Source: Syntrophomonadaceae bacterium (GTDB lineage: Bacteria > Bacillota > Dethiobacteria > DTU022). From it: a stretch of 64,000 bases of DNA. This document shows positions 3,958 through 62,686 of this stretch, in pieces. Under the pieces are notes generated by a model. It was not told the origin of the DNA. It saw only the letters and a list, made by a program, of their open reading frames with translations, and did not search any database. A program made the translations under genes and the position numbers. The number at the start of each line of letters is the position of its first letter. Within the stretch, counting starts at the first letter, position 1. The stretch is taken from NCBI GenBank assembly GCA_007121075.1, contig SKMK01000020.1, positions 59,647 through 123,646 of the forward strand. Direction: 5' to 3'.

Positions 3958-6144
3958 ATGCAATCTTATACCATGGAACTGCAGGGGAAAACCCTGACTC
4001 TTGAAACCGGCAGGCTGGCCAAGCAGGCCAGCGGAGCCGTCCTGGTTCGGTACGGAGACACGGTGGTCCTGGTTACGGCTACTGCTTCCGATGAGCCGCG
4101 TGAAGGTGTGGATTTTTTCCCGATGACTGTTGATTACGAGGAAAGGCATTACGCCGTGGGCCGGATCCCCGGTGGTTTCATCAAGAGAGAAGGACGCCCG
4201 ACAGAAAGGGCAATTTTAGGATGCCGCCTTACCGACCGGGCCCTGCGGCCGCTTTTCCCCAAGGGTTTCCGCAATTCAGTCCATATAGTGAGTACTGTCC
4301 TGTCCATGGACCAGGACTGCCCACCGGAATCACTTTCCATTATTGGGGCATCGGCAGCCCTGTCCATATCGAAAATACCTTTTGACGGCCCGGTGGCCGC
4401 CGTTATAGTCGGTTTGATCGACGGTGAGCCGGTGGTCTACCCCGACCAGGCGCAGCTGCAGCAGAGCGACCTGCACCTGATGTTGGCCGGGACCAAAGAT
4501 GCTGTAATGATGGTAGAAGCCGGCGCCCAGGAGATCAGCAGGGAAGATGTGTTGAAATGCATCGAGGCCGGCCATGAGGGGATCAAAGAAATTGTAGCCC
4601 TTGAAGAACAGATGGTTAATGACTGGGGAACTGAAAAAATGGAAGTCCCCGAAGCAGAGCTGCCGGCAGAAATGGCTGAAGAAGTAGAACCGGCCATTAA
4701 GGAAGGGATCAGCGAAGCCCTTCAGATTGCCGACAAGCAGGAACGTGAAGACAGGTTGGCTGCTTTTAAAAATGAAATTGTGGAAAACTACCTGGAAAAA
4801 TACCCGGAAAACGAAGCGGAACTGGCCAAGGTTTTTGAAAAAGTCCTCAAGGAAACCCTGCGCGAGATGGTTATTAACCAGGAACTGCGGGCCGATGGGC
4901 GAAAACCTAAAGAGATCAGGCCGATAACCAGCGAAGCATCGGTGCTGCCCCGGACCCACGGATCGGCCATTTTTACCCGCGGCCAGACCCAGGTCCTTAG
5001 CATCTGCACCCTCTCCGCTCTGCGGGACGTACAGATCATTGACGGGCTGGGCCTGGAAGAATCAAAGCGTTTTATGCACCACTATAATTTCCCGCCCTAC
5101 AGTGTCGGGGAAGCCGGTTTTATGCGCGGCCCCGGGCGAAGGGAAATCGGACACGGCGCCCTGGCTGAAAGGGCCCTGGAGCCGGTTGTTCCTTCAGAAG
5201 ACGAGTTCCCCTACACCGTGCGCCTGGTTTCAGAAGTGCTTGAATCAAACGGTTCTACTTCCATGGGCAGCGTATGTTCGTCTTCAATGGCAATGATGGA
5301 TACCGGGGTCCCGGTTAAACGGGCAGTAGGCGGAATCGCCATGGGCCTGATCAAGGAAGATGATGATGTGGTGATCCTATCCGATATCCAGGGCGTTGAA
5401 GACTTCCTGGGAGACATGGACTTTAAAGTGGCCGGAACCGAGCAGGGCATTACCGCCCTGCAGATGGATATAAAAATCAAGGGCATCTCACGAGAAATAC
5501 TGCAGGAAGCCCTGGAGCAGGCCGATATTGGATATAAATATATCTTAAGTAAAATGAATGAAGTGATCAGCGAACCGCGACCCGAACTGTCGCCGAATGC
5601 ACCGCGCATGATCAGGCTTCAAATCCCGGTTGATAAAATCAGGGATGTTATCGGCCCTGGCGGTAAGATGATTAACAAAATCATTGCCGATACCGGTGTT
5701 GATATCGATATAGAACCGGATGGAAGGGTATTTATCGCTTCGGTTGACCCTGAAGGCGGCCAGAAGGCGAAAGAAATTATTGAAAACCTGGTTAAAGAAA
5801 TCGAGCCGGGTGAGATCTACATGGGGAAAGTTACCCGGATCGAACGGTACGGGGCCTTCGTCGAACTGCTCCCCGGACAGGAAGGACTGCTGCATATATC
5901 AAACCTTGACCACCACCGGGTGGATAAAACAGAGGATGTGCTTAACCTCGGCGATGAAGTCGAAGTCAAAGTGCTGGATATTGATGACAGGGGAAGGATT
6001 GACCTCTCCAGGAAGGCTCTGCTGAAAAAGCCGGCCGGAAGCGGCAGCGGCGATAGCGGCGGCGGAAGCTCTCCACGGGGTGACGATAAACCACCGCGGG
6101 GCGGCGGAAAACCTCCCAGGGGCCGAGGTAAGTTCGATTCTTAA
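3958..6144 (+). CDS. pnp: polyribonucleotide nucleotidyltransferase (PNPase)
   Basis: Two RNase PH domains, KH and S1 domains and a GxxG motif. The RBS GAGAGGAG precedes ATG 3958. The C-terminus carries an extra Gly/Arg-rich tail ([35 protein letters not shown]). Confidence 0.95.
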
Positions 6145-6164
6145 AACTGATAGCAACAAGGATT

Positions 6165-6191
6165 AAAAAACCCTAGCTGCCAGGGTTTTTT
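6165..6191 (+). terminator. rho-independent terminator of pnp
   Basis: AACCCT-agctgcc-AGGGTT stem followed by TTTTTT. Confidence 0.7.
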
Positions 6192-6263
6192 ATGTGATCC
6201 ATCGTGAATAGATGCTGGAAGATACGGTTTTTTACTGCAAAGGTATAATGAAGGGAGAAATAA

Positions 6264-6722
6264 TTGAACCGGCAACTGGTAATTCTGCCCCTGAAGCGGG
6301 CTGAACATGCAGTGGATATACCTATGCCCCGCTATATGACGGCAGGTGCCTCGGGCCTGGATCTTTATGCTGCGGTTGAGGGAGAGGAGACCATCAACCC
6401 CGGCGAACTGGCCTTGATTTCCTCCGGCCTGAGGGCCGCTGTTCCTCCCGGGTATGAACTGCAAATCAGGCCCCGCAGCGGCCTGGCTGCCAAAAACGGG
6501 ATCGGTATCTTAAATTCACCCGGTACAATTGACTCCGACTACCGTGGTGAGATCAAGGTGATCATGATCAACCTGGGTCCGGAACCTTTTACGGTTAAAA
6601 GAAAGGACAGGATCGCCCAGATGGTCTTATGCCCCGTGGTACGGGCAGAAATAACAGAAGTTTCAAAGCTGCCGGACAGCGATCGCAGCGACGGGGGCTT
6701 TGGCCACACCGGCAGTTCCTGA
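6264..6722 (+). CDS. dut: dUTP diphosphatase
   Basis: TTG start with an upstream AAGGGAG. It has trimeric dUTPase motifs (AGASGLDLYA, RPRSGLA, GTIDSDYRGEI). Confidence 0.9.
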   Translation: MNRQLVILPLKRAEHAVDIPMPRYMTAGASGLDLYAAVEGEETINPGELALISSGLRAAVPPGYELQIRPRSGLAAKNGIGILNSPGTIDSDYRGEIKVIMINLGPEPFTVKRKDRIAQMVLCPVVRAEITEVSKLPDSDRSDGGFGHTGSS

Positions 6723-6793
6723 GGGGTAAACCCAGGCCGGTGCATGCATTGAAGCTGTTAAATAATTGAACCAGCTAATAATGGAGGCTAATT

Positions 6794-8494
6794 TTGGCAA
6801 AGAAAAGTAAAAAAAGTAAAAACATACAGCTGATCCCTCTCGGAGGGGTTGGCGAGATCGGTAAAAATATGTTTGTTCTACAGTACGGCAAAGAGTGCAT
6901 TATAATGGATGCAGGTTTAAAATTTCCGGATGAAGCGATGCTGGGAGTAGACATAGTAATTCCCGATACTTCGTACCTGCTGGAGCAAGATCTTGATATC
7001 CTGGGGATTATCCTCACCCACGGGCACGAAGATCATATCGGGGCAATTCCCTATATTATCGAAGAGCTCAAGGCTCCGATTTACGGAACCCGCCTGACCC
7101 TGGGCCTGCTTGAAGCCAAGTTTAGGGAAAACCCGGTCGGAGACATCGAAATGAATGAAATCAATCCCGATCAGAGGTTGATCCTGTCCGATAATTTTAA
7201 ACTTGACTTTTTCAGGACCAACCACAGCATCCCCGATTCGGTAGGCGTATCAGTTGAAACACCGGTTGGCACAGTGGTCTATACCAGCGACTTCAAATTT
7301 GACCAGACCCCGGTGGACGGCAAAATTACTGAGTACCACAAGCTGGCTGAACTGGGACGAAAAGGAATTGTGGCGGCCTTGATCGATTCAACCAACGCTG
7401 ACCGCCCCGGCTATACTTTTTCGGAAAAAGAAGTCGGCGAAAGCATAAACGAGATCTTTCGCCTTTCCCGGAGCAGGATTATCCTGGCCACTTTTGCTTC
7501 CAATATCCACCGCATCCAGCAGGTAATTGACGCGGCGATCCGTTACGACCGCAAGGTATGCGTGGTTGGCAGGAGTATTGTCAATTCGGTGGATATTTCG
7601 ACCGAGCTGGGTTACCTGACTATACCGAAAGGCCTTCTTATTGACACCGATAAGGTTTCTGATTTTCCTGCTGAAAAAGTGGCCTTGATTACCACTGGCA
7701 GCCAGGGCGAACCGATGTCGGCCCTGACCAGGATATCGCAATCCGAACACCGCCAGGTCCAAATCCAGCCGGGCGATACGGTGATCATTGCCGCCAACCC
7801 GATTCCCGGAAACGAAAAACTGGTAGCCCGGACCGTGAATAACCTGTTCCAGCTAAAAGCGGATGTCATCTATAAACCTGTTTCCGGTGTCCATGTCTCC
7901 GGCCACGGTAGCGAAGAAGAAATTAAGCTTATGCTAAACATGCTGCGCCCTGGTTATATTATTCCCGTTCACGGAGAGTACCGCCAGCAGGCTAACTGTT
8001 CCAAGATCGCCGGCAAAGTGGGCATCCCGGAGGAGAATGTATTCCTGGTTAAACCGGGTAATGTAATGGAATTTTCGAACGGCTGGGGCAGGATGTCCGG
8101 CTCAGTTTCAGCGGGCAGGGTATTGGTTGACGGTTTTGGCGTTGGGGATGTCGGTGAAGTGGTGATCCGAGATCGCCAGATGCTGTCTGAGGATGGGATC
8201 GTAATCATTATCCTGGCCCTTGATCCCGAAAAAAATAAAATTTTAGCCGGGCCCGAGATCATCACCCGCGGCTTCGTTTATGTCCGCGAGTCGGAAGATA
8301 TGCTGGAAGGGGCAAAAGGAGAACTAAACAAAACTATTGACCGGATCAGCCGCCAAAAGATCCAGGAGTGGAACAAGATTAAATCCAGGATCAGGGATTC
8401 TGCCGGAACTTATTTTTACAACCGCACCGGCCGCAAGCCGATGATCTTGCCTATAATCATCGATGTTCCTTCCAACGGGGAGCCTAAAAAGTAA
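6794..8494 (+). CDS. rnj: ribonuclease J
   Basis: Metallo-beta-lactamase HxHxDH motif (THGHEDHIG), a beta-CASP domain and an RNase J C-terminal domain. About 555 aa. Confidence 0.9.
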   Translation: MAKKSKKSKNIQLIPLGGVGEIGKNMFVLQYGKECIIMDAGLKFPDEAMLGVDIVIPDTSYLLEQDLDILGIILTHGHEDHIGAIPYIIEELKAPIYGTRLTLGLLEAKFRENPVGDIEMNEINPDQRLILSDNFKLDFFRTNHSIPDSVGVSVETPVGTVVYTSDFKFDQTPVDGKITEYHKLAELGRKGIVAALIDSTNADRPGYTFSEKEVGESINEIFRLSRSRIILATFASNIHRIQQVIDAAIRYDRKVCVVGRSIVNSVDISTELGYLTIPKGLLIDTDKVSDFPAEKVALITTGSQGEPMSALTRISQSEHRQVQIQPGDTVIIAANPIPGNEKLVARTVNNLFQLKADVIYKPVSGVHVSGHGSEEEIKLMLNMLRPGYIIPVHGEYRQQANCSKIAGKVGIPEENVFLVKPGNVMEFSNGWGRMSGSVSAGRVLVDGFGVGDVGEVVIRDRQMLSEDGIVIIILALDPEKNKILAGPEIITRGFVYVRESEDMLEGAKGELNKTIDRISRQKIQEWNKIKSRIRDSAGTYFYNRTGRKPMILPIIIDVPSNGEPKK

Positions 8495-18649: not shown

Positions 18650-20185
18650 ATGCCCAATACGGTTTTGATAATTGCAGCTTCCGCACTGGTCGGAATAGGA
18701 CTTGGCTATATTATTCGAAAAGTAATTGCTGAAGCCAAGATTTCTTCCGCCGAAACCGCAGCAAAACGAATCGTTGAGGAAGCCACTCAAGAAGCCAATG
18801 CTTTGAAAAGAGAAAAAGAACTGGAGGCAAAAGAAGAAACCCACCGGCTTAGGAACGAAATTGAAAAAGAGAGCAAAGAAAGACGTTCAGAATTGCAGAG
18901 AATGGAGCGGCGGTTGCTTCAGAAAGAAGAGAGCCTTGACCGTAAAATAAGTAACGTTGAAAAAAAGGAAGAAGAGCTTCGTAAGAAGGAAGAAGAAAAC
19001 CGGAAAACTGAAGAGAAATTGGAACAGCTTCACCAGGAACAACTTTCCGAACTTGAAAAGATCTCCGGCATGACTTCAGGCGAAGCAAAAGATGTATTAA
19101 TGCAAAGGGTGCGGGAAGATATAGACCATGAAATAACGATGATGGTCAAGGACATGGAAAACCAGGCCCGGGAAGAAGGAGAGAAGAAGGCAAGGGAAAT
19201 TGTTACCCTGGCCATCCAGAGATGTGCCGCAGACCACGTTTCCGAGTCTACTGTCTCTGTCGTTTCACTGCCCAATGATGAGATGAAGGGCAGGATAATC
19301 GGCCGGGAAGGAAGAAATATCAGGGCTCTGGAAACACTAACCGGGATTGATTTGATTATTGATGATACCCCTGAAGCGGTTATAATTTCCGGATTTGATC
19401 CTATCAGGCGTGAAGTCGCCCGTATCGCCCTCGAAAAACTGGTCAGCGACGGACGGATCCATCCGGCCAGGATTGAAGAAATTGTTGAAAAAACCAGGAA
19501 AGAAATCGATGCCCAGATCAAAGAAGAAGGAGAACGGGCTGCCTTCGAAACCAAGGTTCATGGCCTGCACCCGGAACTGGTTACCCTGCTGGGTAAATTG
19601 CGCTACAGGACCAGCTATGGGCAAAACGTTCTGCAGCACTCGATTGAAGTCTCCCACCTTGCCGGAATCATGGCTGCCGAGCTGGGACTTGACATCACAT
19701 TATCCAAGCGGGCAGGCCTCTTGCATGATATCGGTAAAGCCATTGACCATGAAACAGAAGGTTCCCATGTTCAGATAGGCGGGGACCTGGCTAAGAAATA
19801 CAAAGAATCGGCGGTAATTGTCAACGCCGTTGAAGCCCATCACGGCGATACGGATTTCAATACCCTGGAAGCGGTCTTAATTCAGTCTGCGGATGCTATT
19901 TCCGCTGTCCGGCCCGGAGCCAGGCGAGAAACTCTTGAAGCTTATATTAAGAGGCTTGAAAAACTGGAGAACATTGCCGACTCTTTCGAAGGCGTGGAAA
20001 AGGCTTATGCCATCCACGCCGGACGGGAGATCAGGATCATGGTAAAACCAGACCGGATTGATGACTACTCATCGATTAAAGTAGCCCGGGATATAGTTAA
20101 AAAAGTAGAGAATGAGCTTGAGTATCCCGGACAGATTAAAGTTACTGTAATCCGGGAAACAAGGGCGGTTGATTACGCCAAATAA
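18650..20185 (+). CDS. rny: ribonuclease Y
   Basis: N-terminal TM helix, a coiled-coil, a KH domain and an HD domain (HD..HHG). ATG 18650 follows GGAGGTG. Confidence 0.95.
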
Positions 20186-33374: not shown

Positions 33375-33632
33375 ATAATTGATCAGGCAAAAGGCTGTGA
33401 TCGGAAGCAGTAACAGGGGAAGCCATCTGCAGAGAGCCGCCGGCTGGTGTAAGGCGGTATGACGGATCCTGTGAACTCATCCGTGAGCCGCCAACCGAAA
33501 TTGGCATAACAGCTAAAAGTAGGATTGGCCGGAAACTTCCGTTATCTTAAAGAGTGGGCGGTAGATGTCGTGCCGCCAAGAAGAGTGGTACCGCGAAATT
33601 AACTTTCGTCTCTCAGGCGAAAGTTTTTTTAT
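33375..33632 (+). ncRNA. T-box riboswitch leader (Leu specifier) controlling leuA
   Basis: Conserved T-box sequence AAGAGTGGTACCGCG at 33581-33596. It is followed by terminator CTTTCG-tctctcagg-CGAAAG plus TTTTTTT (33603-33630). The Stem-I region contains GAACUCA (CUC Leu codon at 33476-33478). Confidence 0.8.
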
Positions 33633-48858: not shown

Positions 48859-49989
48859 TTAATAAATAACCAGGTTATCCCTGTGGATCACTTCTTCGGG
48901 AACCGGCCTGTCTATTATATTGGCGATATCGAGGCTGCTTCTTTTCTGAATCCAGATCAACTCTTCTGAAGCAAAGTTGGTCAATCCCCGGGCCAGTTCA
49001 TTTCCGTAGGGATCTTTGACCGTAATCAGGTCGCCCACAGTGAAAGATCCTTCCACATCGATCACTCCTATGGGCAGCAAACTTTTCCCTTGGGAGCGGA
49101 TTGCATTGCAAGCACCGCTGTCTATTGTAACACTGCCGCACGGAACCTGACCGTAGGCAATCCATCTTTTTCGCCTGCTGAGGAAGCGTTCCTGGGGCTG
49201 GAAATAGGTGCCGGCGTGTTCGCCCTTTAGCAACCTGGAAACCACACCGGGATCATAACCATTGGCAATATACATACCAACCCCTGAATTGGTAGCTACT
49301 TCAGCTGCCTGGAGCTTGGTAATCATCCCCCCTGTTGCCAGGTTGTCATGTGATGTTTCTGCGCCGGCTTTAATGCTGTCGTCGATTTTTTCAACATAAG
49401 GGATCAGTTCAGCATCCGGGTATTTCCTGGGGTTTTTGTTGTACAGACCTTCTATATCGGTGAGGATAACCAGTAAATGAGCATCGCTTAAGCCGGCAAC
49501 CAGCGCGGAAAGGCGATCGTTATCGCCAAATTTCAACTCTTCCACCGAAACCGAATCGTTTTCATTGATAACGGGTACAACCCCGAGTTTGAGCAGGGTT
49601 AAAACTGTATTGCAGGCATTGATATAGCGCCGCCTGCTTACCAGGTCGGTGCGGGTCAGCAAAATCTGTCCAACAACCAGGCCATACTCGGCAAAAAGTT
49701 TTTCATAAATCTGAACCAGCAGGCCCTGCCCGACGGCGGCTATGGCCTGCTTTTCCGGAATGGAGATAGGGTTCCTGTTAATGTTAAGTCTTCCCCGCCC
49801 GGCACCGATCGATCCAGATGAAACCAGGATCACTTCATGACCCTGGTTGCATACATCAGCCAGTTCCCTGGTCAGTTTTTCCATGTACCCCAGGTTAAGT
49901 TTGCCGGTATCGTGAGTTAAAAGGCGGGTTCCTACCTTAACCACGATCCGGCAGGGAGCGGGGATAGAAATTTTTTTGTTTTTAGCCAC
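48859..49989 (-). CDS. proB: glutamate 5-kinase
   Basis: Amino-acid kinase domain plus a C-terminal PUA domain. It overlaps the proC stop. Confidence 0.9.
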   Translation of the reverse strand: MAKNKKISIPAPCRIVVKVGTRLLTHDTGKLNLGYMEKLTRELADVCNQGHEVILVSSGSIGAGRGRLNINRNPISIPEKQAIAAVGQGLLVQIYEKLFAEYGLVVGQILLTRTDLVSRRRYINACNTVLTLLKLGVVPVINENDSVSVEELKFGDNDRLSALVAGLSDAHLLVILTDIEGLYNKNPRKYPDAELIPYVEKIDDSIKAGAETSHDNLATGGMITKLQAAEVATNSGVGMYIANGYDPGVVSRLLKGEHAGTYFQPQERFLSRRKRWIAYGQVPCGSVTIDSGACNAIRSQGKSLLPIGVIDVEGSFTVGDLITVKDPYGNELARGLTNFASEELIWIQKRSSLDIANIIDRPVPEEVIHRDNLVIY

Positions 49990-50797
49990 GGCGCAATTTC
50001 TCCGCCTGATTTGTTGCTGCGATCACCGATTTTAGAAGACAGCTGCGGAACCCTGATTCTTCCAGCACGTGCATGGCTGCCGTGGTTGTCCCGGCCGGGG
50101 AAGTGACGGAATTTCTGAGTTCGGCCGGATGCTGCTTGCTGTTCTCCTGGAGCATGCGGGCAGATCCGATTACATTTTGGATTACCATTTCAGAAGCAAC
50201 ATCACGGCGAAAGCCCACCGCCACCCCGGCATCAATCATGGTTTCAATGAACAAAAATACATAGGCCGGGCCGGTGCCGCTCAGTCCAGTTGCCGCATCC
50301 ATCAGGTATTCAGGGATCCTGATGGTAATGCCCATGGATTTCAGCAATGATTCAATTTCATCTCGCTCTTCCGCGGTTACGTTGTCACCGGCGCTGATAG
50401 CGATTGTGCCTTCCCCAAGTAAACACGGGGTGTTTGGCATCAACCGTATCACCTTGCTGAATGAAGGCAAACAGCTTTCTATAAAATTGATGGTTATTCC
50501 GGCTGCAATGGAAGCAAATATCTGACCCTGCTGGACATAATCTTTAATCGAGTATAGCAGGCTTTCAATGTCCTGGGGTTTGACGGCAATAAAGATTTGC
50601 CGACACTGTGATATCACTTCTTCAAGGTTTTCCGCCCCGATAGCATTCAATTCAAGGGCCAGTTCCTCTACTCTTTCCCGGTTCAGGTCATAAAGGTAAA
50701 CCTGGGCCGGGTCAACACCTACTTTTTTTACAATACCTTTTGCCAGGGCTGAACCCATTGCTCCGCAGCCAATCAAACCAATTTTTTTAATGTCCAT
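49982..50797 (-). CDS. proC: pyrroline-5-carboxylate reductase
   Basis: Rossmann motif GLIGCGAMGSA and the P5CR C-terminal domain. A candidate TTGCAT-17-TAAAAT promoter at 50833-50861 lies just upstream. Confidence 0.9.
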   Translation of the reverse strand: MDIKKIGLIGCGAMGSALAKGIVKKVGVDPAQVYLYDLNRERVEELALELNAIGAENLEEVISQCRQIFIAVKPQDIESLLYSIKDYVQQGQIFASIAAGITINFIESCLPSFSKVIRLMPNTPCLLGEGTIAISAGDNVTAEERDEIESLLKSMGITIRIPEYLMDAATGLSGTGPAYVFLFIETMIDAGVAVGFRRDVASEMVIQNVIGSARMLQENSKQHPAELRNSVTSPAGTTTAAMHVLEESGFRSCLLKSVIAATNQAEKLRRG

Positions 50798-50982
50798 GTT
50801 GATCTTTCCTCTCCTTTAAAAACTTATCACTTATTTTAACCAAAGGGCAAAGTTAATGCAATAGCAGGCATATAGAAAAGTTTTCATGCCTTTTCAGGTA
50901 CAAATTGTATAAGGTGCTTAAGATATTAAGGGGTCCTTCAGGTTAACTTGCAGGCATACTGGCGGCTTGTGTACAAATAAAT

Positions 50983-51277
50983 AAAAAGCCAGGTTCCAAC
51001 AGGCCTTCCAGCTTTCCGTCGGATTTCTTCACTGTCCCCTCTACAGTCGGGATTCCACCACCGCCTCTGGATGGCTTTCCCCCAACCTCCGGGCAGTTAC
51101 TTTCATCCGTGCTGTGATTCCCGGTAAAATCCCGGCCCGTAAGCCTTTCAATTACCGGTTCTTTCAGCGATCCAGCTTTAGGGATGGCCCTTCCGTGGAT
51201 TCCGGTTTACCCTTCCTCCACTTCCGGTTTCCCTGCCGACCGGACCCGGTTCACTTTCCAGTCTCTCGGAACCTGGC
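50983..51277 (-). ncRNA. candidate ~295-nt purine-rich structured non-coding element (sRNA / leader / MITE-like), unclassified
   Basis: Minus-strand TTGACA-17-AATAAT promoter at 51284-51312. A perfect 10-bp long-range inverted repeat, GCCAGGTTCC with GGAACCTGGC, encloses 275 nt and is followed by a U-tract. There is no ORF. About 18 GGA motifs, many in an (A/C)CGGAAG context. Confidence 0.35.
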
Positions 51278-51345
51278 ATTATTATTATTGATCAATCCTG
51301 TCAGTTTGTCAATACCTTTTACAAGATTTTTATTTGTTTCTTTTG

Positions 51346-52545
51346 TCAGGCAAATATTTTTCTGATCTTGTCCAGGGCCCAGTCCAGGTCTTCACGGGTG
51401 ACAACCAGCGGAGGCGTAAACCGGATCACATTCTCGTGGGTTTCCTTGGAGAGGATCCCCACCTTCATAAGTTCTTCGCAATAACTGCGAGCCTTGACTT
51501 TAAGTTCAATTCCCGTCAGCAAACCTTTGCCCCTGACTTCGACTATCTGCGGATTATCGATCTTTTTCAGCTCTTCAACAAAATATTTTCCGCTTTCCAG
51601 GGATTTCTCAACCAGGTTTTCTTCCTGCAGCACATCCATAGCGGATATACCAACGGCACAGGCCAGGGGGTTGCCGCCAAAGGTGGAACCGTGGGAGCCG
51701 GGATCGAAAACGTCCATAATGCTGTCATCGGCAGCTATAGCCGAGATAGGCAGGACTCCGCCCCCCAGGGCTTTGCCGAGGATGTAAATATCGGGTTTAA
51801 CGTCTTCCCAGTCGCAGGCAAAAAGTTTTCCGGCCCGGCCAAACCCGGTTTGAATCTCATCGGCCATAAAGAGGATGTTGTTTTCTTGGCAAACCCGGTA
51901 AGCTTCTTTCAGGAACCCCTCCGGGGGAATAATAATACCACCTTCACCCTGGATCGGCTCGATTAACAGGCCGGCTGTGTTGGGGGTAATTGCTTTTTTT
52001 AAGGCTTCGAGATTGCCGTATTCAATCAGCTTGAATCCCGGTGTAAAAGGCCCAAAATCCTTGTTATAAGATTCATCAGAGCTGAATGAAACGACGGTTA
52101 TGGTTCTGCCGTGGAAATTACCGTTGCAGACAATTACTTCAGCTTTGTTGCCGGGAATGTTTTTCTTGCGGTAAGCCCATCTACGGACGGCTTTGAGGGC
52201 CGTTTCAACCGCTTCAGCACCGGTATTCATGGGTAGGATTTTTTCTTTTCCTGTCAGCCTGGACAGTTTTTCGCTAAAGGGGCCCAGTTTGTCATTATGG
52301 AAGGCCCTGGAGGTTACCGTAATCATGTCGGCCTGATCTTTTAAAGCCTTGATAATTTTAGGGTGGCAATGGCCAAAATTCATTGCCGAATAAGCACTTA
52401 ACATATCCATGTAGCGATTTCCTTCTGGATCTTCGACCCATACCCCTTCTGCCCGCGATAGGATTACCGGCAAAGGAAGATAATTACGGGCTCCATACTG
52501 TTCTGTGATACTGAGTATTTCATTTGTGCTGGTAATTTTAATCAC
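51346..52545 (-). CDS. rocD: ornithine--oxo-acid aminotransferase
   Basis: Class-III PLP aminotransferase with Lys in TSRAFHND...GKALGGG, closest to the OAT/RocD subfamily. 399 aa. Confidence 0.8.
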
Positions 52546-52619: not shown

Positions 52620-53699
52620 TTATCTTATAGTTTCTTTTCCAGGCATGGGATTCGGCTCTGTCCAAATTTTACCCTCAAAATTCCTAAGAGAAACAGATTT
52701 TTCATCTCTATAGACTATGTTCTGTGGAGACATTGGACACTTCCCATAAGGAGTATCAAGGAGATATACCGGAACACAGAAACCGCTGGTGAAGCCTTGT
52801 AATTTCTTAATGATATTGATTCCACTTTCAATCGGAGTCCGAAAATGATTAGTACCATGTAAAATTTGACACTGATAAAGGTAATAAGGTCGGACACGCA
52901 TTTTAACAAGACCATGAACCAGTCTTTGATATATTTCAGGATCATCATTAACGCCTTTGAGAAGAACCGATTGGTTGCCAAGAGGAATACCAGCTTCAGA
53001 TAACATTTCACAGGCTTTGCTGGCCTGTTCAGTCAACTCTTTAGGGTGATTAAACTGAACATTTACCCAAAGAGGGTGATATTTATTCAACATTGAACAT
53101 AATTCGGAGGTTATCCTCTGCGGCATGGTGCAAGGTGTGCGGGTACCTATTCTAACAATTTCAATATGCTCTATCTCCCGAAGTCTGGCAATAATTTCTT
53201 CTAACCAATCAGTTTCATTAAGAAAAGGATCTCCTCCTGTTAAAAGTACGTCTCGTATCTCCGAGTTTTCCTTCAGCCACTCTATAGATTCTAAAATATT
53301 GTCTTTGGTAATATATGTCTCAGCCATGTTTACAAATTTCTTCCGAAAACAATGGCGGCAAAGCATCGCACATTGATTGCTTACTGTAAAGGCCAAACGA
53401 TCAGGGTAAACACGCACCAATCCCTTAGTTGGTTGGTGTTCTTCTTCATGAAGAGGATCTTCAACACCAAATGGGTCAAAAAGCTCATTTTTGTTTGGTA
53501 AAGCTTGTTTTCTAATTGGGCATTCCTGATTGTTCGTTGACATAAGACTCGCATAATATGGGGTTGTTGACCAACTATATTCCTTAGATACTTTTTCTAT
53601 ATCCTTTTTTTCGTCATCAGTTAGGTTAATGTATTGCTCAAGTTCTTTTACTGTGGATATCCTGTTTTCCAACTGCCAATGCCAATCTTCAAAAGACAC
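52620..53699 (-). CDS. KamA-family radical SAM aminomutase (lysine 2,3-aminomutase-like), short form
   Basis: CAMLCRHCFRKKF radical SAM triad. Strong collinearity with lysine 2,3-aminomutase (DPLHEE..., RVYPDRL..., GNQSVLLKGVNDD, RPYYLYQC). Only 359 aa, so it lacks the usual C-terminal extension. The gene is visibly AT-rich compared with its neighbours. Confidence 0.7.
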   Translation of the reverse strand: MSFEDWHWQLENRISTVKELEQYINLTDDEKKDIEKVSKEYSWSTTPYYASLMSTNNQECPIRKQALPNKNELFDPFGVEDPLHEEEHQPTKGLVRVYPDRLAFTVSNQCAMLCRHCFRKKFVNMAETYITKDNILESIEWLKENSEIRDVLLTGGDPFLNETDWLEEIIARLREIEHIEIVRIGTRTPCTMPQRITSELCSMLNKYHPLWVNVQFNHPKELTEQASKACEMLSEAGIPLGNQSVLLKGVNDDPEIYQRLVHGLVKMRVRPYYLYQCQILHGTNHFRTPIESGINIIKKLQGFTSGFCVPVYLLDTPYGKCPMSPQNIVYRDEKSVSLRNFEGKIWTEPNPMPGKETIR

Positions 53700-54100: not shown

Positions 54101-54176
54101 TGGCAGGGGAGACAGGACTTGAACCCGCAGCCTGCGGTTTTGGAGACCGCTGCTCTGCCAGTTGAGCTACTCCCCT
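54101..54176 (-). tRNA. tRNA-Trp (anticodon CCA), CCA encoded
   Basis: The minus-strand sequence AGGGGAG-TA-GCTC-AACTGGCA-GAGC-A-GCGGT-CTCCAAA-ACCGC-AGGCT-GCGGG-TTCAAGT-CCTGT-CTCCCCT-G-CCA folds as a canonical cloverleaf. Confidence 0.8.
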
Positions 54177-61255: not shown

Positions 61256-62686
61256 TCAATCGCTGCCTTCTCCCTTGATTACAGCCAGGGGCAACAGCCT
61301 GGCCACCTTGCTGCTCATCCCGATTTCGGTAAAAGTATCAATTACCATTTCGATGTCTTTGTAGGCCTGGGGTGCTTCATCCAGGTAGGCCTTAAAACTG
61401 CGCCCGGAAACCAGGACTTCGGAAAGCCTTCCCTTTAATTCTTCGACAGATATTTCTTTTTTAGCCGCCCGTCGGGAAAGGACCCTTCCGGCGCCGTGAT
61501 TTACGGAATTATAAATTTTGCTTACCCCCGGTTCGGCCTTGACCACGTATGAAGCGGTTCCCATACTACCTGGAATCAGTACCGGATGCCCGGTTGAAAG
61601 GTACTGTTTTGGGTTGTCGGGATGCTCCGGCGGCAGGGCCCTGGCAGCGCCTTTGCGGTGGATAAGCATTGTTTTGCCGTTGATTTTTTCGAATCGCGCT
61701 GTATTGTGAGCAATATCGTACACAAGGTCCAGGTCAAACAGGCGATCATCTCCCCCAAAAACGGTGCTGAACGCTTTGCGGACGTCATCGGTTATCCACT
61801 GGCGGTTGCAAAAGGCAAAATTAATGGCGCAGGCCATTGCGGCCAGGTACCTTCTTCCCGTCCCGGAAGTTATGGGCACTGAAGCCAGGCCGGCAGAGGG
61901 CAGTTCTATTTTATGCCCGGCAGCCTTTTTCTTCATTGATGCGGTATAATCTGTGCAGATCTGATGCCCAAACCCCCGGCTGCCGGTGTGAATCAGGACG
62001 GTGAGCATTCCTTCATGCAGGCCGTACACGTCTCCGGCATGGTGGTCAAAAACTGTATCCACGTAACCAAGCTCGATAAAATGATTGCCTCCCCCGATCG
62101 TTGAGAGCTGAAGCCCTCGCTTGCGGGCTTCCTTGCTTACGGCTCCCAGGTCGGCACCGGAGATGCATCCTCCCTCTTCTATTGCGTCTATGTCTTCAGG
62201 CCTGCCGTAACCCTGGTCAATAAGAAAAGGGGCCCCATCATGGATCAGGGGATTAAAATGGGTACTGATAAAAGCTTCATGTTTGCTTTTCCGCCCTACT
62301 CCGCTGGGAACTCTCTTCTCAATGGCTTTAATCAGCTCCCGCAGGGTGGTTTTATCCAAACCGTCCGGATCAACGTTTGTTCGCAGCAGGCGGACCCCGC
62401 AGTTGATGTCCATCCCAACCGCTCCGGCGGAAACCAGCCCCAGTTCGGAGTCCATGGCCATGACTCCGCCGATGGGAAGGCCAAACCCGCTGTGAATATC
62501 GGGCATTCCGATCACGGGATCAACAACACCTTCCAGGGACGCGGCATCCATCAGTTGCTGCAGGGATTGATCTTCGGTAAAAGCCTGGTAAAGCTGGCGA
62601 TTTAGATAAACCAGGACATCGGCTTTCATGTTTCCGCGGCGCTTAATGCGGTAACAATTTTTTCCTGCCGGCTCCAGCAAAGACAC
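61256..62686 (-). CDS. rtcB: RNA-splicing ligase RtcB
   Basis: 476 aa RtcB family with His/Cys metal ligands and a nucleophilic-His region (NHGAGR). Confidence 0.85.
   Translation of the reverse strand: MSLLEPAGKNCYRIKRRGNMKADVLVYLNRQLYQAFTEDQSLQQLMDAASLEGVVDPVIGMPDIHSGFGLPIGGVMAMDSELGLVSAGAVGMDINCGVRLLRTNVDPDGLDKTTLRELIKAIEKRVPSGVGRKSKHEAFISTHFNPLIHDGAPFLIDQGYGRPEDIDAIEEGGCISGADLGAVSKEARKRGLQLSTIGGGNHFIELGYVDTVFDHHAGDVYGLHEGMLTVLIHTGSRGFGHQICTDYTASMKKKAAGHKIELPSAGLASVPITSGTGRRYLAAMACAINFAFCNRQWITDDVRKAFSTVFGGDDRLFDLDLVYDIAHNTARFEKINGKTMLIHRKGAARALPPEHPDNPKQYLSTGHPVLIPGSMGTASYVVKAEPGVSKIYNSVNHGAGRVLSRRAAKKEISVEELKGRLSEVLVSGRSFKAYLDEAPQAYKDIEMVIDTFTEIGMSSKVARLLPLAVIKGEGSD

Follow-up and report, generated by a model that had tools for sequence, protein, structure and literature searches.

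What is encoded in the gap between rocD and proC of a Syntrophomonadaceae bacterium, and does it belong to one of these genes or stand on its own? We addressed this question in a 64,000-nt stretch of contig SKMK01000020.1 (hereafter the window), in which rocD (51346–52545), coding for ornithine–oxo-acid transaminase (NF003145, 695.7 bits against a cut-off of 656), and proC (49982–50797) lie on the minus strand, separated by 548 bp (50798–51345). All coordinates are positions in the window, the element in the gap is read on the minus strand, and L-numbers label homologue loci. An earlier note on this sequence had described the gap as free of open reading frames (ORFs), and its only complete minus-strand ORFs are indeed 33 and 36 amino acids (aa) long; the note proposed in their place a promoter-driven non-coding RNA gene rather than a plain untranslated region (UTR). 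Our analysis supports that proposal. The element has its own promoter, a covarying fold, and a U tract, occurs once per genome, is linked to rocD, which is its conserved upstream neighbor, and is followed by operons that carry promoters of their own. We conclude that it is very probably an independent structured RNA gene of a new family. A more specific reading, in which the RNA acts in trans as a ribonucleoprotein (RNP) or as a ligand sensor, is put forward tentatively, and the blend of both claims is the explanation that we consider probable overall.

A Covarying Four-Way Junction

The RNA spans 290 nt (50988–51277, minus strand). Minimum free energy (MFE) folding, covariation among homologues, and the covariance model (CM) R1 all describe it as a four-way junction made of a closing helix, P1, and three arms, A, B, and C. 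The MFE fold of a 306-nt stretch is a closed multi-branch structure of −125.6 kcal/mol (z = −5.4), and none of 100 shuffled sequences folded as well. In RNA numbering P1 occupies positions 1–18 and 273–290, arm A 32–109, arm B 110–167, and arm C 169–258; two short stems, P1a and P1b, follow P1 and lead to the almost gap-free junction.

The ends of the element had been noted as perfect inverted repeats, and GCCAGGUUCC (51277–51268) is in fact the exact reverse complement of GGAACCUGGC (50997–50988), after which comes UUUUUAUUUAUUU. The helix formed by these ends is real and is kept across homologues, but the 10 bp first assigned to it were too few, as P1 has 12 contiguous pairs, and 16 when counted past a G.G and an A.C mismatch. 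Its nearly invariant 5′ strand, (G/A)CCAGGUUCCGAGAGACU (51260–51277), pairs with the 3′ strand GGCCUGUUGGAACCUGG(C) (50988–51005). Both mismatches are present in every sequence, as is a tandem G.A adjoining P1. The earlier note had suggested judging the element by its conservation and compensatory changes in relatives; both were found, and the changes extend to P1 itself, where a U-A pair becomes C-G in L044 and a G-C pair becomes A-U in L050; L071 has U.G in place of a C-G pair.

Arm A (51169–51246, helices 4–8) is a long hairpin with purine-rich 4x4 internal loops, in which 20 of 22 pairs show changes on both sides. Arm B (51111–51168, helices 9–11) is a hairpin of variable length, with insertions in L013 and L062 and both-side changes in 13 of its 15 pairs. 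Arm C (51020–51109, helices 12–17) is the most conserved arm in sequence and holds most of the conserved unpaired bases; its conserved parts are AGUA (51098–51101) facing GAA (51028–51030), GGAGGUUG, CCAUCC, and GGUGG..GGAA. We take the AGUA opposite GAA to be a putative bulged-G module of the sarcin-ricin or loop-E type.

To evaluate this fold, the MFE structure of the window copy was mapped onto a plain MAFFT alignment of 35 sequences. In this alignment 88.6% of pair cells were paired, against 28–48% when the 3′ partners were slid by one to three columns; changes on both sides occurred in 56 of 86 pairs, and the covariation score was 0.304 against 0.055–0.114 for the slid partners. The alignment A6, of 57 sequences fitted with the CM, gave 89.7% paired cells, compensatory changes in 62 of the 86 pairs, 418 doubly changed cells, and a covariation score of 0.331 against 0.053–0.101, with none of 500 shuffles matching the observed values on any measure; these figures are to be read with the caveat that the reference structure derives from one aligned sequence, to which A6 was fitted. 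RNAalifold independently recovered most helices, and the MAFFT numbers are nearly equal to those of A6. The four-way junction of P1 and three long arms is thus strongly supported by covariation. A mutual-information scan for pseudoknots or tertiary pairs returned mostly known pairs at the top and nothing convincing beyond them.

The homologues hold no conserved ORF on either strand: the longest complete ORF has a median of 31 aa in sense and 30 aa in antisense, and homologue lengths modulo 3 are evenly distributed (19/19/19). A 66-aa gene called by the Joint Genome Institute (JGI) opposite the RNA strand in L004 (2112–2312, minus strand) has no Pfam match and almost certainly reflects a spurious ORF call on the antisense strand, which is rich in pyrimidines. 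The purine skew that had been reported is present, with 64% purines in the element; the strongest purine/pyrimidine strand skew of the window lies elsewhere, at about 18700–19200 (0.71 over 290 nt).

Promoter, U Tract, and Predicted Transcript

The promoter claimed for the element, TTGACA-17-AATAAT, was recovered by a promoter scan at 51312–51284, with 11 of 12 consensus positions. Its −35 hexamer TTGACA (51307–51312) and −10 hexamer AATAAT (51284–51289), both on the minus strand, are conserved, and the promoter stands 7 nt upstream of the 290-nt element. TTGACA and the 17-nt spacer are found in all 57 distinct homologues checked, and the −10 hexamer reads (A/C)ATAAT in 54 of them, with a one-base variant in the remainder. 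The distance from the end of the −10 hexamer to C2 of P1 is 6–7 nt in all 57, and this fixed spacing would put the start of transcription on the first P1 base or beside it.

At the other end, the U tract UUUUUAUUUAUUU (50975–50987, minus strand) directly follows P1. At least five T occur within 8 nt after P1 in 53 of 54 homologues; the frequency of T is 87–89% at positions +1 to +3, and conservation fades past about +10. The closing helix with its U tract, as first described, is therefore both real and conserved. As in a putative intrinsic terminator, the G+C-rich CCAGG/CCUGG end of P1 directly precedes the U tract, and the "loop" of such a terminator would measure about 255 nt (RNA positions 19–272), which is why a standard terminator scan, with loops of 3–8 nt, is silent on P1. 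From the placement of promoter and U tract, the predicted transcript would be exactly the folded unit, with its two ends paired. As a separate observation, the sequence GUAC, often within UAUGUAC, is kept 9–14 nt after P1 in 21 of 54 loci (about 50970–50973 in the window), in downstream contexts that are otherwise unrelated.

The stop codon of rocD lies 68 nt before the start of the RNA in the window and about 50–110 nt before it across loci, of which about 43 nt are promoter. With the gap almost filled in this way, there is no place for a separate rocD terminator, and transcription of rocD must run on into the RNA; read-through from rocD probably ends at P1 and the U tract too.

Homologues and Known Families

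We collected 58 distinct homologues, one per genome, from soda-lake and alkaline metagenomes and metagenome-assembled genomes (MAGs) labeled "Syntrophomonadaceae" or Bacillota. They came from 31 species-representative genomes, metagenome contigs, and protein-anchored loci. Loci reached through ProC relatives of 72–88% identity all carry the element, and their flanks have diverged. A two-block DNA pattern gave one match each in the 31 species-representative genomes, MAGs from soda lakes and similar sites labeled Syntrophomonadaceae or Bacillota except for L039 (Limnocylindrales), a label that we suspect to reflect a mis-binned MAG. A second pattern, which left the outer part of P1 free, added 27 metagenome loci, and L071 was found through rocD rather than through a P1 pattern. 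The second pattern also matched L066 (489–772, metagenome contig Ga0247815) by chance; this match has neither the promoter nor a CM match and was excluded.

R1 was built from 57 of the 58 sequences. It finds a single copy at each locus; in the window, where the element scores 303.8 bits, it finds no other. The homologues score 125–304 bits, the lowest being a divergent subgroup of L013, L054, and L062 (125–152 bits); the E-values of the CM are rough, and these bit scores leave homology beyond doubt. A search for extra copies in the window with blastn (word size 7) and the CM returned the element itself, together with a few short and weak CM matches that are P1-like hairpins, and collections of plasmids, phages, and viruses gave no match to the RNA. 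Both collection scans demanded exact matches inside P1; patterns drawn from the interior alone lacked specificity or picked up too few of the known members. The P1 changes of L044 and L050 came to light only with the pattern that left the outer part free. It follows that the near-invariance of P1 is in part ascertainment and that the known range, one uncultured haloalkaliphilic clade, is a lower bound.

The earlier note recognized no known family in the element, and the CMs of Rfam 15 (4227 models) bear this out, with no match in it at the gathering score, although the same run detects two tRNAs and a T-box in other parts of the window. At E ≤ 10, region 50800–51400 yields only chance matches to eukaryotic families, far below the gathering score, and Rfam gave no match on eight related loci. 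The T-box model in particular has no match in the element; the full-length T-box leader that the same run finds at 33388–33616 (plus strand; RF00230, 137.5 bits against a gathering score of 93) is unrelated to it. As for a tRNA-like domain, ARAGORN finds only tRNA-Trp in the 50–57 kb region. Nor did searches of the literature on rocD and structured RNA motifs, of that on soda-lake MAGs, and of the Breaker-lab survey of 50 genomes turn up a description of the RNA. Judged by these comparisons, it is a new family among the complex-folded bacterial non-coding RNAs that matches no curated one.

Genomic Context

Across loci, the gene directly upstream of the RNA is rocD in 35 of 56 and a gene for L-glutamate gamma-semialdehyde (GSA) dehydrogenase, itself preceded by rocD, in another 6 of the 56, always in the same orientation as the RNA. 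Farther upstream lie hypD, oraE with a MutL-type reactivase gene, or rtcB–tRNA-Trp. Downstream come proCBA in 19 loci and a gene for a NuoE/F-like flavoprotein in 23, the latter mostly followed by a gene for a 1300-aa Fe-S/flavin protein. The neighbors are consistently ornithine and proline enzymes (rocD, GSA dehydrogenase, hypD, oraE, and proCBA), and this persistent linkage points to the metabolic node of ornithine, pyrroline-5-carboxylate (P5C), and proline. The RNA stands without rocD upstream in L007, L017, L024, and the divergent L013, L054, and L062, the last three having hpt on the opposite strand as the next gene. The downstream gene is co-oriented with the RNA in 45 of the 50 loci where one is visible, and it converges on the RNA in L013, L054, L062, and L039.

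The relationship with rocD holds where the two candidate partners are apart. In the more distant relatives L008–L011, nhmmer and the CM find no RNA upstream of proC; on the 823-kb contig to which L008 belongs, the RNA is missing before proC and is found after rocD, about 10 kb upstream of proC (L071). The RNA thus goes with rocD, not with proC. The promoter proposed for proC, TTGCAT-17-TAAAAT (50833–50861, minus strand), exists in the window and is kept in relatives as TTGCAT-17-TAnAAT whether the RNA is there or not; in L009, for instance, it stands before proC with no RNA at that place. A consensus scan misses this site because its −35 hexamer matches only three of six positions. The NuoE/F-like operon likewise has a strong promoter of its own, TTGACAC-17-TATAAT, downstream of the RNA in every locus with that region displayed. 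Taken together, the promoters of the downstream operons, the convergent neighbors, and the linkage to rocD argue for an independent RNA gene and not a 5′ leader.

Several other features of these loci deserve mention. The NuoE/F-like promoter, written in full as TTGACAC-17-(TG)nTATAAT, lies 60–170 nt downstream of the RNA (L019, L027, L018, L037, L070, and others), and an inverted repeat such as ttgacaCTGACAatatGTCAGtgtataat is common in its spacer and may be a repressor operator. On the 823-kb contig, genes for the NuoE/F-like protein (about 800 aa), the 1300-aa Fe-S/FlpD/flavin protein, and a DAO-family oxidase lie between rocD–RNA and proC (L071 from 4737–7136 onward; L008 1–1306), and they may code for a multi-subunit dehydrogenase of proline or a related amino acid. 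Around the RNA, the window carries, in order, surE, rtcB, ABC transporter genes, a serine-dehydratase-like gene, the hypD activase gene, hypD, tRNA-Trp, a KamA-family radical SAM gene, rocD, the RNA, proC, proB, proA, and a ROK kinase gene. The tRNA-Trp(CCA) gene (54101–54176, minus strand; also L010 2172–2247 and L011 2222–2297) belongs to a conserved backbone, surE–rtcB–tRNA-Trp ... proCBA, of which the tRNA-Trp–proCBA part also occurs in more distant relatives that have no RNA at that place. The KamA-family aminomutase gene (52620–53699, minus strand) is found between tRNA-Trp and rocD in the closest relatives only, and its product scores below the equivalog cut-offs for glutamate 2,3- (454 against 650), lysine (450 against 525), and arginine (408 against 600) aminomutases. 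Between rtcB or hypD and rocD, six loci carry a gene whose product, about 360 aa long, matches nothing in Pfam (cluster c10; L019 2399–3490 oriented; also L007, L016, L029, and L035).

Alternative Explanations

Could the RNA be part of the message of a neighbor? As a cis-acting riboswitch or attenuator, it would bind a ligand (proline, ornithine, P5C, or similar) that stabilizes P1 and terminates transcription before proCBA or the NuoE/F-like operon, much like the proline- or ornithine-responsive proC leader that the earlier note had considered. That P1 closes the whole fold and directly precedes the U tract, that the conserved bases sit in internal loops as in an aptamer, and that the mostly co-oriented next gene belongs to proline/P5C metabolism would all suit such a device. 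Nevertheless, conserved promoters intervene between the RNA and both types of downstream operon, an alternative antiterminator pairing is not apparent, four loci have a convergent downstream gene, and the RNA follows rocD instead of preceding proC where the two are apart. Moreover, with 290 nt and 86 pairs the RNA is large for a riboswitch aptamer, and we regard a leader of this kind as distinctly unlikely. An assignment to the other neighbor, in which the RNA serves mainly as the 3′ end of the rocD (or rocD–rocA) mRNA, a large terminator or stabilizer possibly processed into a 3′-UTR-derived small RNA (sRNA) with the internal promoter secondary, has in its favor that 41 of 56 loci have rocD, alone or with the GSA dehydrogenase gene, immediately before the RNA and in the same orientation, that the short distance from the stop codon leaves no room for a separate terminator, and that the RNA travels with rocD through rearrangements. 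Processing of rocD read-through could add to the pool of the RNA. As the whole explanation we find this unlikely, for 86 covarying pairs and conserved loops go beyond the needs of a terminator, a near-consensus promoter stands at a fixed distance from P1 in 57 of 57 homologues, and six loci have the RNA without rocD upstream.

The remaining candidates start from features of the sequence itself. The window copy is rich in GGA, with 18 triplets, and the earlier note took this density as a hint of a sponge of the CsrB/RsmY type that titrates a GGA-binding protein such as CsrA. The count is correct, but dinucleotide-preserving shuffles already give 13.8 ± 2.3 triplets and 119 of 2000 reach 18 (p about 0.06), so that the density is mostly an effect of composition; only GGAA is clearly enriched, with 12 copies where shuffles average 5.7 ± 1.9 and 3 of 2000 get as far. 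Among homologues, however, GGA varies from 7 to 19 copies and is kept in at least 70% of sequences at three columns only, GGAA loops become AGAA, GAAA, AUAA, or GUAA, and the triplets sit in helices and internal loops of the covarying fold, not in exposed hairpin loops. Since GGA is not conserved, the sponge fails, and we hold it to be highly improbable. A Y-RNA-like partner of an Ro60/Rsr-type protein or of the RtcB RNA-repair system would share with our element the sequence-conserved terminal stem followed by a U run and the variable interior, and rtcB belongs to the same conserved backbone (61256–62686 in the window; directly upstream in L024). The strands GGUUCCGAG / UUGGAACC of P1 also loosely recall the Y RNA stem, GGUCCGA(A/G) / UUGAC, a resemblance that is no more than a lead. 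Yet there is no Rfam match to Y RNA or YrlA even at E ≤ 10 and no tRNA-like domain according to ARAGORN, the RNA measures 290 nt where 80–130 nt are typical, the motif GNCGAAN0-1G occurs in only 14 of 57 sequences at scattered positions, and P1 has no bulged C. Bacterial Y RNAs are encoded within 4 kb of rsr, the Ro60/TROVE gene, on the same strand (PMC4201824), and no TROVE-domain gene is present among the annotated ORFs of at least 110 aa at 40.4–63.6 kb of the window. On the published criteria of TROVE gene, tRNA-like domain, motif, and size (PMC4201824) we rejected this candidate, which is very improbable. Finally, inverted-repeat ends in AT-rich flanks had raised the possibility of a miniature inverted-repeat transposable element (MITE) or another mobile element. 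The element is nonetheless present once in each of 31 genomes, with no second copy in the window or at any locus and no match in plasmids, phages, or viral contigs; its genomic position is conserved and compensatory changes of the RNA type run throughout. Single copy and covariation together rule out a MITE, an origin to which we give practically no credence.

Proposed Role and Significance

With these alternatives weighed, our preferred explanation is an independent RNA gene whose product would work as a folded particle. In this model, a strong promoter of the sigma-70 type would start transcription at the first base of P1, and the RNA, about 290–300 nt long, would fold into the four-way junction of P1 and three long arms with purine-rich internal loops. 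P1 and the U tract probably act as an intrinsic terminator, both for this transcript and for read-through from rocD, and in the mature RNA the paired ends would be held together and would protect the molecule. We would expect strong expression from the RNA's own promoter and a distinct transcript that is both abundant and stable and may act in trans by binding a protein or a small ligand. Contacts with either would likely involve P1, which hardly varies and includes the G.G, A.C, and tandem G.A mismatches, as well as the conserved loops in arm C, and the role would lie at the ornithine / glutamate-semialdehyde–P5C / proline node. Duplex prediction with the translation-start regions of rocD, proC, and the NuoE/F-like gene, a crude test, gave mean z values of −0.4, 0.0, and −0.7 and inconsistent sites, and so lends no support to a base-pairing sRNA.

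Several points weigh against this explanation. The transcript, its ends, and its abundance are all predicted from DNA sequence, and a terminator hairpin with a "loop" of about 255 nt is atypical. All hosts belong to one uncultured clade, and the synteny with rocD could in part be inherited gene order. The constancy of P1 owes something to the way in which homologues were collected, and L071, which was found via rocD, does have a P1 change. The divergent subgroup (L013, L054, and L062), in turn, adjoins hpt and not amino-acid genes.

Few structured RNAs in bacteria are as large and complex as this one; wherever a function has been established, it is that of a ribozyme, an RNP core, or a sensor, while several others are orphans. 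To our knowledge, no RNA regulator or sensor has been reported for ornithine, P5C, or proline. The present case has unusually clean computational support, with 58 sequences, compensatory pairs in 62 of 86, and a promoter and predicted terminator at fixed positions, and it comes with a genomic clue, as the RNA has stayed behind the ornithine aminotransferase gene in spite of several rearrangements. Finding a ligand or a protein partner would open the study of RNA sensing of ornithine, P5C, or proline and offer a way into the amino-acid fermentation of uncultured soda-lake Firmicutes. More speculatively, the RNA might be a new trans-acting sensor or RNP core that binds an ornithine, P5C, or proline metabolite, or senses cytoplasmic pH via the A.C and G.G of P1, and so controls amino-acid-fermentation enzymes or mRNAs in haloalkaliphilic anaerobes, or alternatively a new catalytic RNA, ideas that we consider rather unlikely. 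If it were only an ornate terminator or stabilizer, it would still be a useful annotation for MAGs with spurious ORF calls such as the 66-aa gene of L004.

Comparison with Known Systems

Like CsrB and RsmY, the window copy is purine-rich and has many GGA, but here GGA is neither conserved nor exposed in loops. Aptamers of the lysine-riboswitch type share the multi-helix junction closed by P1, the putative loop-E-like module, the conserved internal loops, and the amino-acid context; our RNA differs from riboswitch aptamers in lying outside a 5′ UTR, with promoters downstream and P1 abutting the U tract with no visible expression platform, and in matching no Rfam model. Small RNAs of the EutX/Rli55 type, regulators that join a sensor fold to protein sequestration, have their own promoter and terminator within a catabolic cluster and a fold more elaborate than base pairing with a target would call for, much as proposed here. 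In contrast to them, the present RNA has no recognizable riboswitch or ANTAR-type site and no regulator gene nearby. With 6S RNA and Y RNAs, which are stable and bind proteins, it has in common an independent gene, paired transcript ends, a terminal stem that is the most conserved part, and a variable interior, whereas its four-way junction takes the place of a bubble or tRNA-like module, rsr is not a neighbor, its size is different, and Rfam gives no match. The closest likeness in kind is to the raiA motif RNA, OLE, ROOL, and GOLLD, orphan RNAs of Firmicutes, extremophiles included, that are stand-alone or semi-independent. Their covarying helices are numerous, their conserved bases cluster in junctions and internal loops, and their functions cannot be read from sequence. 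Set against these, the RNA described here matches nothing in Rfam 15 and is a 290-nt four-way junction, restricted to one uncultured haloalkaliphilic clade as far as its range is known and tightly linked to rocD.

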